Counted from the first letter of the stretch, positions 18,712-60,562 are shown. The stretch: DNA of 64,000 nucleotides from Candidatus Oxydemutatoraceae bacterium (GCA_965220085.1 CBDCOZ010000003.1:1600001-1664000), one strand, 5' to 3'. The notes: generated by a model from the letters alone, not told the origin. Program-made: numbers and translations.

Positions 18712-20354
18712 CTACCGCAACGGCCCTTCCAGGAAGACGCGCAACCGCAAGCGCAAGCGCTCCGCCAGATGTATGGTCATCATATGGGTTGCGCTGGATA
18801 AGGCGCCATCGCTCACGGTGAAGGTGAAACTGGCGTAATTGGGCTGTGCGAGCTGGTCCGATGCCGGATAGTAGGTGATGGCGCCGATGTTGTCAGCCAT
18901 CACAATGTGATCCACGGAAGCGGGGGAACCGCCCACTCGCAAAGTGCCGACGGATGGCAGAGTCTTTATGGTGATGGCGGTCAGGCTGTCGCCTTCCTCG
19001 TCCATGTACGGGAAGTCGGAGACCTTGAAAGCGTAGGGCGCGTTTTCGGTTGCCCTGATAGATACCGTCACCGAATCGTCGCTACTGACGGGGGCATCGT
19101 TGATGCTGGATATGCGGGCGGCGTCGGAGCAGAGGGCAGGGGATGCTACGGTGCCGCCTTCGGATGCCGGGGCGGCGTGTTTGTCCATGAAGAATGCGCA
19201 GGCTCTTATGTGCATTCCCCCCTGGGCCTGCAATGGGGTGAAAGTGGCCCCGGTGGCCCCGGCTATGGGACCGTAGTCGGCATCCGCCGGGGCGCCGCTG
19301 GCAGGGGCCGGGGCCTGGTACCATTGCCATTGCAGGGTGTCAGTGTCTATGCCGTTGGGTTCGGTTATGCCTCTGACGCTGGCGGTAAGCATCACATCCT
19401 CGTTGCTAACAGCGCCGATGGGGGTTAATGCGGCGAGGAGCGGAATGGGTCTGTATACCGTGGGTTTGCCGGCGGCGGCCTGCCCCCGGCTGTTTATTAT
19501 GTCTATGGTGAGGGTGGCGGCTTCGGCGGCTTCATCGGCACGGGTGGCGCGACCGCCATTATCCCGCACTCTGTATGTGAATGTGGCATAGCCCGCGCCA
19601 ACGGCGGGGTTGGCATCCGGATAGTATGCCAGATAATCCACTTCGGTGACATCCAGAAAATTGTTGGCACGGATACATCTGGGGTTGGCAGTGCAATGAG
19701 TGCTAAGAGATGAGCCATCCAAAAACGCATCCGCCAGAATACCCCGCGTGGGCACGGACACTATGTAGATGCCATCGAGGGTGTTGCCATCCTCATCGGA
19801 AAAGGGGAAGTCCGCCCGCGCAAAGAGGTACGGGGCGGCGGAACTGGCGTTGTCCGGCACCATTATGGCGCTGTCGCCGCCAACAGGCCGGTCGGCCACA
19901 TTGGCCACTGCGGCGACCGAGGTCCAGCATCGGGTCTCGTTGTTGCCGCCGTCATCGGCAAAGGCGGCGCAGACGCGGATGAACTTGCCGACATGCTCCT
20001 GCAACGGGGTGAATGTGGCGGCGGTCGCCGTGGTGATGTTGGCGTAGGCGCCGCCGCCAGTGTCGGCCACGCTCCATTGCCAAGTCGGCGTGAAGGTGGT
20101 GATGCCATCGGCATCGCCTATCATGCCTTGGACTGCGGTCAGTGCGCTGTCCTCATTGGGCCCCGTCGTGGTCAGGTTGGTGTTGTCCGCCGCCGTCACC
20201 GTCGGGGTACCGGTGGCGTTCTGCGCTTGCGCTTGGGTGCAGACGGCAAACAGAGCCGGCAGAATAAGCGTCCAGAGGCTAAGCCGAGCTAGTGTCGCCC
20301 ACCGATGCGGGGGGGGGGGGGGGGGGTATAGGTATTATTAATTTTTAAGCTCAT
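18712..20354 (-). CDS. Secreted modular Ig/cadherin-like protein with RLRLRVFLEGPLR tail; ATG at 20354 out of frame at a C18 tract (phase OFF as sequenced)
   Basis: Track ORF 18712-20199 extends upstream in frame through HRWATLARLSLWTLILPALFAVCTQAQAQ to the homopolymer; ATG AGC TTA AAA lies 5' of the tract; repeats NDAP..PY.F..SDFP..DE.G and WQW..GAT.ATFTP.Q..IR.C. Confidence 0.8.
20309..20326 (+). repeat. G18 homopolymer (C18 on the coding strand), putative slipped-strand phase-variation tract
   Basis: 18 G counted; lies 28 nt after the ATG; 16 or 19 would restore the frame. Confidence 0.85.
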
Positions 20355-20610
20355 GCTATTTTTTAGGATCATGGTCTTTCTCCTGACAGATGTAGCCGTA
20401 CGGTAGTATGTACACAAACGCTTAATGAGGCACAGTAATAAGAGGCACAAACAACACTCGGTTGTTTGTGTGTGTTTAATCTAATTGTCTGTGGTTTCTT
20501 CAAATTATTTGTATTCCATAAACTGTTTGCGGATTGCTTAATGTCGCACCATACCATAAATTCAGTTATTTACAAGTTCAACTGTTGCTTTCCCCTGATG
20601 GATTCCGTGC

Positions 20611-20638
20611 ACTATACCACAAAGTGAGTCCTTTGCAA
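20611..20638 (-). promoter_or_regulatory. Putative sigma70 promoter TTGCAA-16bp-TATAGT (extended -10) with upstream A-tract
   Basis: Minus strand GCTTGCAAAGGACTCACTTTGTGGTATAGT; identical at 23163-23190; similar TTTGTGGTAGAGT at ~58293-58305. Confidence 0.5.
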
Positions 20639-20913
20639 GCGCTTTTTTTTCAAATCGCAATGACTGCCTCTGGCGACCGCTTGCGTCGGCGTTGCCGAGG
20701 CGTTGCTATTGCCTGTCAGCCTTTGCCGAAGCCAGCAATCCGGCATGTTTCAGTCATTTGCAAGCGTATCCGCCCCCTTGTGCGCCCATAATACTCCCCT
20801 TCCCGCCGCTTAAACATGCTTTAAGCAGTGTTCACATATCGCTTGCGCACCCAACACTCCCGCCGGTGCGCCTGCGGGGATGGTGCGATAGCAACGTGTC
20901 GGAGCACTCGCGC

Positions 20914-22888
20914 TTACCGCAACGGGCCTTCAAGGAAAACGCGCAAGCGCAAGCGCAAGGCGGTTGCCACCACACGAGCGTCGGCGGAGCACAGCGGCCC
21001 CTCGGCGGTGCCTATGCTATCGGTGAAGCTGGCGCAGGCGCGGATGTATCGACCGGCATGTGCTTGCCGGGGAGTAAAAATAACATCGGTAGCGCCGGTG
21101 ATGGCGGCGTAGGCGTTGTCCATCGGGGCGCCACTGTCCGGGGCCGGGGCAGATTGCCATTGCCAGCGGATGCTACCCCGGTTGATGCCGTTGGGTTCGA
21201 TGATGCCATCTGCGGATGCAGCCAGCGGTATGTCCTGCAGGTAAGCGGTGTCGGTGGCAAGGGCGGCAGTCACCGTGGGTGCGCCGGTGGCATCCGTCGG
21301 GTCGGAGGTAATCAAGTTTATCGTGAGGGTGGCGATGCGGACGCTGGCGTTGTTGGTGCCCGCCGGGTCATCGCCGTTGTCGGTCACATTGAATCTGAAG
21401 GTAGCGTAGCTACTCTGGGCACTCTGCCCGCTGGCAGGGTAGTACGTAAGGTCCGCGATGTCGGCAACGGCTATGGTGTCGTCCGCCATGGCGGCGGCGG
21501 AGCCGTTGCGCAGGGCGCCGGATGCCGGCAACGATTCCAGAGTGACGCTGGCCAAGTCATCGCCATCCTCGTCGGCGAACGGGAAGTCGCTCGCCTTGAA
21601 AGCGTAGGGGCTGGCCATCGTCGCACCCATAGGCACATTGATGAAGCCGTCTTGCGCCACCGGCGCATCGTTGACATTGGTTGTCCGGACTGCGGCGGAA
21701 CAGAGCGGGCCCTCCTCTGCCGGGGTGGCGTGGCGATCCATAAAGGTTGCGCAGACTCTTATGTATTGGTCTGTACGGGCCTGCGTAATGACGAATGCTT
21801 CGGCGGTGGCGCCGGCTATGGCGGTGTATGCGCCGACGGCCGGGGTGCCGCTGGCCGGGGTCGGGGCAGATTGCCATTCCCACCTCAGAGTTCTCCAGTC
21901 TATGCTGTTGAGATCGGCAATGCCAAAGTAGTTGGCGGTCACCCGGGCGCCCTCGGCGGCGCTGGCGGACGGTGATGTTGTGGGCGCGCCGGTGGCCGCC
22001 ATCTGGTCCGGCGATGTCAGATCTATGAGCATGAAATTAACTCCGGTGTGATTGATGCCATCATCGTTGTCGGCCACCGGCCGGTAGACAAAGGTGGCAT
22101 AGAATCCGGTGGGTTGCTGACCGGGTATCGGGTACCAGGCCAGAGCGCCGGCGGTCAATTGGGCCACGGTTACGGTTACGGGGTTTCCGGTGCCAGTAGA
22201 GACGGGGTTGCCATTCAGGGTCAGGGTGCCCCCCGGTATCAGGCTATCAAAGGTGATGGCGGCCAGCATATCGCCATCGGGGTCTATGAACAGAAAGTCT
22301 GACGCCTTAAACCGGTATGGATTGTCGGCGGTGGCGGATGCCGGCACCGCACCGCTGTGGCGCAGGGAGGTTTGGGGCAGGTCGTTGACATCGGTCACTC
22401 TGACGGGGGCAGAGCAGATGCTGGCGGTGCGTATGCGGCTGTCCTCGGTGGCGGGGTCGCCGCCCTCGGCGGTACCCCGGCCATCGGTGTAAAAGACGCA
22501 CAGGCGCAGGTTCTTGTTCACATGGTCTTGCGAGAGCGGGGCGTATGTGTTGACGTCCCAAGCCGCCTCTTCCCATCCCAGGCCGACGGTAGTACTGAGT
22601 TGCCAACTGAAGTCAAATTGTCCTGCCGCGGGCAGGCCATCCTCATCGCTCAGGCCGGTCACGCTGGCATTGACTGTCTGCATTTGGGCCACGGTGGTGA
22701 TGAGGTCGGCGCTCCCGTCCAACACCATGCCGATGGCGCCCTGCGGCGCAGTGTTGGTCTGCGCTTGCGCTTGGGTGCAGACGGCAAACAGGGCCGACAG
22801 AATAAGCGCCCAGAGACTAAGCCGAGTTAGTGTCGCCCACCGATGCGGGGGGGGGGGGGGTATGAGTATTATTAATTTGTAAGTTCAT
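20914..22888 (-). CDS. Secreted modular Ig/cadherin-like protein with RLRLRVFLEGPLR tail; ATG at 22888 out of frame at a C14 tract (phase OFF as sequenced)
   Basis: Track ORF 20914-22728 extends upstream in frame via HRWATLTRLSLWALILSALFAVCTQAQAQ to the tract; ATG AAC TTA CAA upstream; five alternating modules. Confidence 0.8.
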
Positions 22889-58461: not shown

Positions 58462-59694
58462 ATGAATTGCAAAACTTTCGATACGACTCCCGCGCAACGG
58501 GGCGCAACAATGATACGGCGCAGTCTTTGGGTGCTTCTGTTGCTCGCTGTTGTCTGCGCTCAGGCACAAGCGCAGACAAATCCGGTGACAGCTTCCACTA
58601 GCGTGGATGTATACACCACGCACACCGCCAACAACCCATACAGGTTCAAGATAGCCGACTTCCCTTTTACTGATACGAACGGCCGTAGCCTGCTTAGAGT
58701 GGTGTTTCAATTTCCCGGCCCCGACAACTTCAATGGCAACCTGCGCAATCCTCTCTCTCCAACAGTCGTACTCGAACAGACATACGTCAGAACCGCAGAC
58801 GATCTCAGGGACGGTAATCTGGTCTATTACCCAGCGGCGGGTCAGACCCCGCAAACTGGCTACGACAGCTTTACGTTCCAGGTGCAGGTTCTGAGAGAGC
58901 AGACGAATACGCAAACCTTCTACGACACCAGTAACGAGGCTACCATGACCATCAACCTGGTGATTGAGCCCCCGGCTGCCCCCACCGGCACCCCCGCCGT
59001 GACCGCCACCGACAGCATGGCCACTGCCCACAATGAGGATGTGGAGCTGACCGCTAGCACAGGCACCGTAATCGATGACAACTACATTGATACCGACACC
59101 CTGATGTGGCAGTGGCAACAGTCCGCCACCATGGCCGGCACATATGAAAACATCGACGGATCCAACGCCGCCACTTTCACACCCCAGCAGGAACATGTCG
59201 ACCAATACATCCGCGTCTGCCTCCGTTTCACCGATGGCATAGGCACCGTCGAGGGGCCGCTGTGTTCCCCCGGCAATATCATCACCGCTGTCAATGATGC
59301 CCCCACCAGCGAAAATGCTTTTGTGGATGTGCCCATCACCGCAACCGCAGACGAGCCCTATGTCTTCAAGACCTCCGACTTTCCATTCATGGACGAGGAG
59401 GATGGTACCACTCTGGGCGGCGTAGACATAGCCAGCACCGTCGCATCTGGCAAGGGCGAATTGCGCATTGGAAGCGGGTCTGCCGCCCTCGGCAACCTGC
59501 CCGCGGGCTCAATCAATATACTCACCTATTATCCCCCGCCTAACATCACCGCTACCCCTAACTTTGCCACTTTCACCTTCAAAGTGACCGATGTCGGCGG
59601 CGCCAGAAGCGAAATCCATAGGATGACCATCAACCTGAAGTCCTTCGATATACGCTTGCGGTTGCGCCTCTTCCTCGAAGGCCCGCTACGATAG
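58462..59694 (+). CDS. Secreted modular Ig/cadherin-like protein with RLRLRLFLEGPLR tail; in frame, no homopolymer tract
   Basis: MNCKTFDTTPAQRGATMIRRSLWVLLLLAVVCAQAQAQ signal peptide; same two module types and tail as the paralogs; start chosen by homology to their ATGs. Confidence 0.85.
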   Translation: MNCKTFDTTPAQRGATMIRRSLWVLLLLAVVCAQAQAQTNPVTASTSVDVYTTHTANNPYRFKIADFPFTDTNGRSLLRVVFQFPGPDNFNGNLRNPLSPTVVLEQTYVRTADDLRDGNLVYYPAAGQTPQTGYDSFTFQVQVLREQTNTQTFYDTSNEATMTINLVIEPPAAPTGTPAVTATDSMATAHNEDVELTASTGTVIDDNYIDTDTLMWQWQQSATMAGTYENIDGSNAATFTPQQEHVDQYIRVCLRFTDGIGTVEGPLCSPGNIITAVNDAPTSENAFVDVPITATADEPYVFKTSDFPFMDEEDGTTLGGVDIASTVASGKGELRIGSGSAALGNLPAGSINILTYYPPPNITATPNFATFTFKVTDVGGARSEIHRMTINLKSFDIRLRLRLFLEGPLR

Positions 59695-60562
59695 CGCGAG
59701 CCATCCTCGGCGCTTGCACGACACACTCTTGAAGGCCCGCTACGATAGCGCGAGCAACCCACGGCGCTCGCACGACACACTCTCTTAAAGGCCGGTTGCG
59801 ATAGCGCAAGCAACCCACGGCGCTCGCACCGACACACTCTCTTGAAGGCCCGCTGCGATAGCGCGAGCAACCCACGGCACTCGCACGACACACTCTCTTG
59901 AAGGCCGGTTGCGATAGCGCGAGCAACCCACGGCGCTCGCACGACACACTCTCTTGAAGGCCCGCTGCGATAGCGCGAGCAACCCACGGCGCTCGCACGA
60001 CACACTCTCTTGAAGGCCGGCTGCGATAGCGCAAGCAACCCACGGCGCTCGCACAACACACTCTCTTGAAGGCCGGCTGCGATAGCGCGAGCAACCACAG
60101 CACTCGCACGACACACTCTCTTGAAGGCCGGCTGCGATAGCGCGAGCCATCCCCGGCGCTCGCACGACACACCCTTGAAGGCCGGCTGCGATAGCGCGAG
60201 CAACCCACGGCGCTCGCACGACACACTCTCTTGAAGGCCGGCTGCGATAGCGCGAGCAACCCACGGCGCTCGCACGACACACTCTCTTGAAGGCCGGCTG
60301 CGATAGCGCGAGCAACCCACGGCGCTCGCACGACACACTCTCTTGAAGGCCCGTTGCGATAGCGCGAGCAACCCACGGTGCTCGCACGACACACTCTTGA
60401 AGGCCGGCTGCGATAGCGCGAGCAACCCACGGCGCTCGCACGACACACTCTTGAAGGCCGGCTGCGATAGCGCGAGCCATCCCCGGCGCTCGCACGACAC
60501 TCTCTTGAAGGCCCGTTGCGATAGCGCGAGCAACCCACGGCGCTCGCACGACACACCCCTTG
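59677..60562 (+). repeat. Tandem array of 16 units of 54-57 bp, consensus GAAGGCCGGCTGCGATAGCGCGAGCAACCCACGGCGCTCGCACGACACACTCTCTT
   Basis: Unit starts counted at 59677, 59731, 59787, 59844, 59900, 59956, 60012, 60068, 60123, 60177, 60233, 60289, 60345, 60399, 60453, 60507; no unique spacers. Confidence 0.95.

Follow-up and report, generated by a model that had tools for sequence, protein, structure and literature searches.

Three proteins encoded within a single 64,000-nucleotide stretch of DNA from a Candidatus Oxydemutatoraceae bacterium (the window, corresponding to C3:1600001-1664000, on one of the 3 contigs of a genome of 2,492,841 bases that is 99% complete) were found to end in the same short peptide. 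Examination of the entire genome demonstrated that this tail, with the consensus [LIV]-R-L-R-L-R-[LIV]-F-L-E-G-P-L-R-COOH, recurs far above chance, is kept by selection at the level of the peptide and not of the DNA, and is portable, being independent both of the last domain and of the protein end at which it is located. On balance, we regard the tail as a peptide tag for surface sorting or retention, which would adopt the form of a cationic amphipathic beta-strand and would mark one common fate of a large, lineage-specific set of Sec-exported, extracellular-type proteins.

In each of the three window genes the tail was located at the protein end to which an initial annotation of the window had assigned it, with the stop codon following directly, and the three ends together conform to the pattern [LI]RLRLR[VL]FLEGPLR-stop. 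The genes and their associated elements are as follows.

18712-20354, minus strand: gene 1, a 540-residue open frame in which the body and a signal peptide ending in LILPALFAVCTQAQAQ share one frame.
18712-18756, minus strand: tail of gene 1, LRLRLRVFLEGPLR, with its TAG stop (codons at 18715-18756, stop at 18712-18714).
20309-20326, minus strand: poly-C tract of gene 1, 18 nucleotides (nt), between the ATG and the signal peptide; 16 or 19 nt would restore the frame.
20914-22888, minus strand: gene 2, a 656-residue open frame that includes a signal peptide ending in ILSALFAVCTQAQAQ.
20914-20958, minus strand: tail of gene 2, LRLRLRVFLEGPLR, with its TAA stop (codons at 20917-20958).
22847-22860, minus strand: poly-C tract of gene 2, 14 nt, at the 5' end of the gene; 13 or 16 nt would restore the frame.
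58462-59694, plus strand: gene 3, intact, starting with the ATG at 58462 or 58510, with the signal peptide MIRRSLWVLLLLAVVCAQAQAQ and a Big_9-like last domain.
59650-59694, plus strand: tail of gene 3, IRLRLRLFLEGPLR, with its TAG stop (codons at 59650-59691).
59677-60556, plus strand: tandem array of period 56, with 15.9 copies and 92% matches, beginning within the last tail codons of gene 3.

Gene 1 encodes Ig-like modules, the last of its domains being Big_9/cadherin-like; the last module of gene 2 is of a 'WQWQ..IRACASF..PLCS' type and not Big_9. The starts originally proposed for genes 1 and 2 could not be upheld, since neither ATG (20354 for gene 1, 22888 for gene 2) shares the reading frame of its body, a poly-C run lying between the two in each case, and gene 3 alone is intact. 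A Sec-type signal peptide had been attributed to all three proteins; this holds without qualification for gene 3, while in genes 1 and 2 the peptide (..FAVCTQAQAQ) is present in the frame of the body, with no in-frame ATG upstream of it in this assembly.

The family had been thought to consist of those three proteins. A six-frame search for FLEG[PA]L[RK]-stop instead returned 214 places in the genome, 185 of which end open frames of at least 150 residues (hereafter, the carriers). When 8466 stop-to-stop frames of at least 100 residues were compared with the 14-residue consensus, 192 frames scored 10-14 and 2 scored 8, with all of the rest scoring 6 or less; among the resulting 194 frames with at least 8 consensus matches, which were collected without a regular expression, the last seven residues deviate in just 6, and the protein ends after R in 192 and after Q in 2. 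The back-translated DNA pattern was likewise found 152 times in the genome (72 forward and 80 reverse), and a reversed control pattern 0 times.

The 185 carrier frames account for 162,241 codons, or 19.5% of the genome, and include adhesin-like proteins built from Ig, cadherin or fn3 repeats, subtilases, PPC-domain and Cys-rich proteins, and giants (the largest frames being 15,193, 14,215, 13,255, 9,777, 6,024 and 4,989 residues in length). They tend to be clustered, with 137 of the 185 located within 5 kb of another carrier, and their GC content is 60.2% (69.2% at third codon positions) as compared to 55.3% (63.4%) in other genes, on the basis of 162 and 1243 crude gene calls of at least 600 nt, respectively. 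Tails with a single change were observed at C2:77511-79106 (..FLEDPLR) and C3:360158-362104 (..FLEGSLR), along with two decayed tails (..IFPEGSLQ and ..IFLRSLLQ); rare non-synonymous variants of this kind may mark genes that are decaying.

The sequences of the 185 tails differ far more as DNA than as protein, comprising 174 distinct 42-nt sequences and 33 distinct 14-residue peptides, and the last 11 residues occur in only 4 versions (RLR[LIV]FLEGPLR and a single LLRIFLEGPLR). Averaged over all pairs of tails, identity across the last 11 codons is 0.85, 0.999 and 0.63 at the first, second and third codon position, respectively, and identity in the flanking DNA is approximately 0.3 over the 60 nt upstream and is down to 0.25 by about 10 nt past the stop. 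At positions -12 to -9, which lie outside of the search expression, Leu or Arg is kept in 734 of 740 codons, with synonymous codons (TTG/CTG and CGG/CGC/CGT) mixed, and all three stop codons are in use (TAG in 113 carriers, TAA in 48 and TGA in 24). The combination of 174 DNA versions, few peptides and this codon-position pattern therefore points to purifying selection upon a translated peptide that ends exactly at that point.

The proposal that the tail is independent of the domain preceding it was supported by several lines of evidence. The 120 residues ahead of the tail fall into 11 BLAST clusters (of 65, 42, 36, 21, 14 and 2 members, plus five singletons), the bodies of carriers within the genome are 29-64% identical or unrelated, and the linkers leading from the last domain to the tail vary in both length and kind. 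The Pfam families encountered in carriers are Big_9, He_PIG, fn3, Cadherin, PPC, Peptidase_S8 and Calx-beta: the C-terminal 1216 residues of the 15,193-residue frame contain fn3, Cadherin and He_PIG domains, and frames of 2039 and 1360 residues combine Peptidase_S8 with Calx-beta, while two Cys-rich classes of carrier matched no Pfam family over threshold. (A subtilase motif suspected in the carrier at C1:32929-34449 was unsupported, with no Pfam match at an E value of 1 or better.) In gene 1, where the possibility that the tail represents the last strand of the preceding domain was checked directly, positions 1-88 of the 89 in the Big_9 profile are matched by residue 476, and the tail occupies only residues 482-495.

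In addition, three proteins were identified that carry the tag near their N-terminus (C1:23865-25292, C1:36355-38001 and C3:1171407-1173515), in a cassette consisting of a signal peptide, NPMTVPQDVLT[IV]AQA.., LRLRLRVFLEGPLR, and then a GGS.. linker, with 22-25 residues separating the signal peptide from the tag. The codons of the tag differ synonymously between the three. In two of these proteins the cassette is followed by PPC repeats, and in the third by a domain with sub-threshold trypsin-like similarity. The 11 contexts and the copies near the N-terminus therefore indicate a portable, self-contained tag and not the last strand of a domain, and the internal position of those copies indicates that a free carboxyl end is not strictly needed.

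The initial annotation had called for a search of this genome and its relatives, and had raised the concern that the tail might be limited to recent paralogues. Against its 152 occurrences in this genome, the DNA pattern of the tail was absent from all 40 relatives examined, of which 18 belong to the same family and 22 to the same order, and was found in none of the species genomes scanned; ...PLR-stop and ...PLQ-stop DNA patterns were likewise found in neither species genomes nor metagenome contigs. With the complete protein of gene 1 as query (E <=1e-5), the genome itself yielded 112 matches, whereas the 18 relatives from the family yielded none. Word-based protein searches with tail regions, which are insensitive to so short a motif, returned only the source of the query itself. 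A profile built from the last 30 residues of 28 diverse carriers was then compared with 1.84 billion cluster representatives (E <=0.001) and retrieved 71 proteins: 66 that are readable from this genome, 1 that is unrelated, and 4 foreign proteins that end in ...LRLR[LV]FLEGPLQ.

One of those foreign proteins, P0031 (with a sister, P0081, of 90% identity), derives from short assembled contigs, and the other three (P0061, P0069 and P0072) derive from a public metagenome-assembled genome (MAG) that is named Candidatus Oxydemutatoraceae bacterium by its source. P0031 follows the plan of the window genes, with a signal peptide, Big_9-like domains and the tail, yet shares only 29% identity with gene 1 and no more than 35% with any of this genome's frames; the fn3 proteins of the MAG resemble those frames in the tail only. 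In every copy seen, the two lineages have different last residues, R here and Q in the foreign proteins. Since foreign bodies of no more than 35% identity nonetheless share the same tail, the tag is older than the paralogue expansion in this genome. The concern over recent paralogues thus proved half right: the tail is known from this genome and one diverged lineage only, yet is carried by about 190 proteins with diverged or unrelated bodies. The family itself is placed within the Gammaproteobacteria (NCBI taxonomy), and a species of its type genus is listed among sponge symbionts in one report (PMC11685487).

A second feature of many carriers is located at the opposite end of the gene. The initial annotation had spoken of phase variation, and poly-C tracts are indeed present: 82 of the 185 carriers, genes 1 and 2 among them, contain a tract of 9-28 nt, read as poly-Pro, which separates the signal peptide from a short leader at the N-terminus, and these represent 82 of the genome's 90 C/G runs of at least 9 nt. 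In this assembly an upstream ATG shares the frame of 26 of the 82, and the other 56 are out of frame. A change of reading frame can be brought about by poly-C tracts that lie in the 5' coding region of genes for surface proteins, as in the contingency loci of Neisseria, Haemophilus and Campylobacter. The 82 carriers with tracts of 9-28 C resemble those loci and may likewise be switchable, although the likeness concerns the 5' end of the genes and not the tail. The read evidence at the tract of gene 1 consisted of contigs at a depth of approximately 27 and 3 Hi-C reads; one public contig contained a tract (at 20309) that is one base shorter, which is too little to show phase variation, and the difference in length may reflect either switching or homopolymer error.

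The carriers appear to be suited for export by the Sec pathway. By a simple rule that combines a small-x-small site with a basic residue and a hydrophobic window of 10 residues, an N-terminus resembling a signal peptide was recognized in 165 of the 185, and most of the other 20 look truncated. As a possible route across the outer membrane, the genome contains a complete type II secretion system (T2SS) operon at C3:452-466 kb, a system that is present in 19 of 19 family genomes, 18 of them without the tag. (An insertion in GspK that had seemed special to this genome was dropped from consideration, as the corresponding frames of relatives are of similar size, at 399-492 residues.) A second secretin lies within a type IV filament operon, and the genome further contains one Omp85-family frame and one TolC-type frame. 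Searches of the genome returned 0 matches to the autotransporter domain PF03797, to the usher PF00577 (a periplasmic chaperone was not searched for) and to the exosortase PF09721, and did not find CsgG, and RTX families were absent from the Pfam hits of the 13 carriers scanned; the initial impression that the proteins possess neither an autotransporter barrel nor RTX repeats was in keeping with these results.

A rhombosortase, however, is encoded at C3:475041-475553, at a distance of about 9 kb from the T2SS operon (its score of 93.7 bits exceeds the cutoff), and a classical sorting tag coexists with the new tail in this organism, the rhombosortase system standing beside the tail and not acting through it. 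A search with the GlyGly_CTERM model gave no match in the genome, but control genomes were also without a match. Regular expressions for helix-type C-terminal tags were insensitive, in that they missed an example seen by eye: a PPC-domain protein (C3:1167979-1169079) whose C-terminus, in a GlyGly-CTERM-like manner, is made up of a stretch rich in Gly, a hydrophobic helix and RR.

The tail itself has the periodicity of an amphipathic strand, as had been suggested for its R/L segment. The hydrophobic moment of L-R-L-R-L-R-[LIV]-F-L reaches its maximum, 3.32, at 180 degrees, the figure for 100 degrees being 1.04; only 72 of 10,000 permutations attain this maximum. Read as a strand, the stretch presents one face that is all Leu and another that is Arg-rich. 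At least 3 [RK][LIVMF] pairs precede FLEGPLR in 148 of the 185 tails, and the number of RL pairs ranges from 1 to 5. Designed peptides in which cationic residues alternate with hydrophobic ones, from approximately 8 residues upward, are described in one study as being beta-stranded on anionic membranes and as self-assembling into beta-sheets, more so in the presence of phosphate (PMC8757834).

The strand conformation, envelope location, retention role and export route that we infer for the tag can be assembled into a simple scheme: (i) the protein would be exported by the Sec pathway, and would then probably cross the outer membrane via the resident T2SS; (ii) the alternating Arg/Leu stretch, 8-10 residues in length, would form a cationic amphipathic beta-strand; and (iii) that strand would hold the protein on the outer face of the cell, either by lying upon an anionic lipid surface (lipopolysaccharide or phospholipid) or by adding itself to a beta-sheet edge of an envelope receptor that the carriers have in common. 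Specificity would come from the invariant F-L-E-G-P-L-R.

Several other explanations for the tail can be put forward. That it is no more than the closing beta-strand of the Ig-like domain ahead of it is scarcely credible: while the tail follows directly upon the final strand (..TMTINL..) of Big_9-type domains in 58-65 carriers and has the periodicity of a strand, the Big_9 profile is complete ahead of it, the same tail stands behind 10 other unrelated contexts (Cys-rich and Pro-rich linkers included), the length of the linker between domain and tail varies, and the tail also follows an N-terminal signal peptide. It is also very improbable that its conservation reflects a DNA or RNA feature to which the peptide is incidental, such as a cassette by which surface-protein genes would be shuffled through recombination or gene conversion, the terminus of a mobile element, or a transcription-type terminator signal. 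The clustering of 137 of 185 carriers within 5 kb, the tendency of their 3' ends toward tandem duplication, a CGCTTG-like hexamer repeat within the tail codons, and the presence of CGCGAG after 60 of the 214 stops would each be in keeping with such an element. That explanation is largely refuted already by the codon-position pattern, in which the differences fall mainly at third positions and, in Leu codons, at first positions where the change is synonymous, while second positions are 99.9% identical; moreover, the tails exist in 174 DNA versions, conservation is gone within about 10 nt past the stop, the unit of the array is found at 7 loci only and folds no better than its shuffled counterparts, and the tag has been retained in a second lineage with bodies of at most 35% identity.

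Among explanations that accept the peptide as the functional unit, one would make it a targeting signal for the T2SS, its free C-terminus being read by a PDZ-like C-terminal domain of GspC or by another periplasmic part of that system, with a role in export and not in retention. Subtilases, PPC-domain proteins and adhesin-like proteins are often secreted by the T2SS, the operon for that system is complete, and in 192 of 194 frames R is the very last residue of the protein. The last 90 or so residues of GspC can be read as PDZ-like, with a GLG[YF]-type loop (EYGLGYKIIP), this C-terminal region aligns across 19 of 19 family genomes, and the PDZ domain of Vibrio cholerae EpsC is needed for secreting a subset of substrates, according to one study (PMC12369372). 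We nevertheless consider this signal unlikely, as Pfam analysis of GspC gave only T2SSC and no PDZ model at E <=0.001, a genome-wide PDZ_2 search did not list GspC, the same GspC domain is present in the 18 relatives that are without the tag, and the three proteins with an internal tag have no free carboxyl end at that point. Twelve conserved residues also exceed the usual need of a PDZ ligand. By analogy to the designed peptides, the tags might instead bind one another, with Arg/Leu strands of different proteins forming a shared beta-sheet (possibly on phosphate-rich polymers) as a mixed surface coat or matrix; the phosphate-enhanced sheet formation of such peptides in the study cited above (PMC8757834), the occurrence of the tag at either protein end, and the presence of 1 to 5 RL pairs around a fixed core would suit this arrangement, but the invariant FLEGPLR is not needed for zippering of RL strands and suggests a specific reader, and we regard the arrangement as improbable. 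Still less probable is that the tail serves as a recognition element for a dedicated protease or quality-control system (for example, one making an Arg-specific cut after ...GPLR), such that the C-terminal tails mimic a product and the N-terminal copies are removable propeptides. GGS linkers do follow the three N-terminal copies, the tail ends in Arg in 192 of 194 frames, and one N-tagged protein has both a sub-threshold similarity to Trypsin_2 (E 0.019; 16.1 bits, where the cutoff is 27.6) and putative catalytic His/Ser motifs. That assignment, however, remains below threshold and no solved relative of the N-tagged protein was found, no reason has been given for 190 proteins to carry a mimic of a product, and the tail of the other lineage ends in Gln and not in Arg.

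The preferred reading of the tail as a tag for surface sorting or retention must also be weighed against several observations that do not favor it. The T2SS alone cannot explain the tag, since 18 tag-less relatives possess that system, and we know of no description of T2SS passage by proteins of 10,000-15,000 residues. In this assembly 56 of the 82 poly-C carriers are without an in-frame start. The confinement of the tag to this genome and one other lineage makes comparative support thin. Finally, an analysis of the neighbors of carriers did not find a tag-specific partner gene; the recurrent neighbors were IS-type (insertion sequence) genes, decayed family members, and a coiled-coil, tail-anchored family. 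The last of these has a C-terminal hydrophobic anchor and a weak CCDC90-like similarity, and is represented by 10 copies among the neighbors of tail genes (including C3:496566-498538, 106210-107150, 858538-859278 and 1300387-1300857).

Tandem duplication of 3' ends was observed at several carriers. The array downstream of gene 3, which the initial annotation had mentioned and which was recovered as such, consists of units that contain the final tail codons (EGPLR), the stop, and approximately 35 nt from beyond the stop; it represents a duplication, local in extent, of the 3' end of that gene and not a genome-wide element. Related arrays of 5 and 2 copies were seen at C3:648.6 kb and C3:1578.0 kb, respectively. 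The core sequence of the unit occurs at 7 loci only in the genome and its predicted fold is no better than that of shuffled sequences (z -0.83), and the ideas that the unit forms a stable hairpin or a genome-wide repeat were both rejected on those grounds. Elsewhere (C3:513720-514188, 908934-909438, 522006-522162 and 1303709-1303949), the last 25-50 codons of a carrier, together with the tail and stop, are tandemly duplicated behind it with a period of about 117-168 nt, leaving short frames of 22-51 residues that end in the tail.

The tail was found to correspond to no described family or signal. No match to the tail was obtained from Pfam or NCBIfam with the three whole window proteins, nor with 28 tail segments at E values up to 10, save for two chance matches (E 0.077 and 0.21). 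A sequence search of the PDB returned no relatives of gene 2, of a Big_9-plus-tail profile or of the N-tagged protein, and a single chance hit (E 1.1) to the tail profile; no description of the tail motif or of such a protein family was found in the searchable literature. The assertion that the tail matches none of PEP-CTERM, GlyGly-CTERM, the type IX secretion system (T9SS) C-terminal domain, and the beta-signal of the beta-barrel assembly machinery (BAM) was upheld, both by those searches and by the parts that define each signal. The defining parts of PEP-CTERM are a PEP motif near the C-terminus and, behind it, a transmembrane helix and a basic cluster, while GlyGly-CTERM combines a C-terminal Gly-Gly motif with a transmembrane helix and basic residues; both tags are cut by a membrane enzyme, and GlyGly-CTERM proteins are substrates of the T2SS. 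The present tail resembles both in being a short C-terminal tag common to many unrelated secreted proteins (proteases, PPC-domain proteins and proteins with adhesin-like repeats), and resembles GlyGly-CTERM further in that the genome has both a T2SS and a rhombosortase. It differs from the former in that its 14 residues contain neither a PEP motif nor a hydrophobic run and in that no exosortase was found in the genome, and from the latter in being without a Gly-Gly motif, transmembrane helix or basic cluster.

The T9SS signal, found in Bacteroidota, is a folded C-terminal domain of approximately 70-100 residues; it too is a C-terminal signal upon varied Sec-exported proteins, and directs them to the surface, whereas the conserved part of the present tail is 12-14 residues in length and no T9SS model matched the three window proteins or the 28 segments. 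The BAM beta-signal ends in an aromatic residue and closes a beta-barrel (BamA of this organism ends in ...DFGGSF). The tail shares with it the pattern of a terminal amphipathic strand with alternating hydrophobic residues, but ends in R (192 of 194) and follows soluble Ig-like or enzyme domains (Big_9, He_PIG, fn3, PPC and S8). Autotransporter (type V) secretion is set apart by the 0 matches to PF03797 and the one Omp85-family frame, and chaperone-usher assembly by the absence of usher matches. Type I (RTX) substrates have no N-terminal signal peptide, and carry a C-terminal signal and Gly-rich nonapeptide repeats, in contrast to carriers of which 165 of 185 begin with a signal-peptide-like sequence and among which, in the 13 scanned, no RTX repeat was found. 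The short C-terminal strand by which PilC/PilY1 docks upon minor pilins offers a further parallel, and the genome encodes both T2SS pseudopilins and a second type IV filament operon; PilY1, however, is one tip protein per pilus, while the tag is found on about 190 proteins that include enzymes and giants. The designed alternating peptides of the study already cited show the same alternation as L-R-L-R-L-R-L-F-L, which reaches their minimum length of 8 residues (PMC8757834); those peptides, unlike the tail, are free, synthetic membrane disruptors, whereas the stretch here is fused to large proteins and followed by the invariant FLEGPLR.

Within some 190 proteins of this small genome no peptide is more conserved than the tail, which nevertheless is without the defining parts of known tags; a dedicated reader of the tag therefore likely exists. 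Shared C-terminal tags have repeatedly led to new sorting machinery, including sortase, exosortase, rhombosortase and type IX secretion. A more far-reaching proposal, which we offer tentatively and would not call probable, is that the tag belongs to an undescribed pathway of envelope sorting or anchoring, in which a 14-residue strand tag without a transmembrane helix would have a reader of its own, would serve a fifth of the coding capacity (proteins of 10,000-15,000 residues included), would be coupled to 82 poly-C switchable genes (which would be among the largest such sets in any bacterium), and would be shared, with a change of the last residue between R and Q, with a second lineage that a public record assigns to a sponge-associated family.

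The tag provides a simple sequence rule by which to list the variable surface repertoire of this organism and its kin, and it is sufficiently compact that its action, whether in retention, export or assembly, is accessible to reporter fusions. The 82 poly-C tracts linked to the tag suggest a very large switchable surface repertoire, which, if true, would bear on the dealings of the organism with hosts, phages or grazers.

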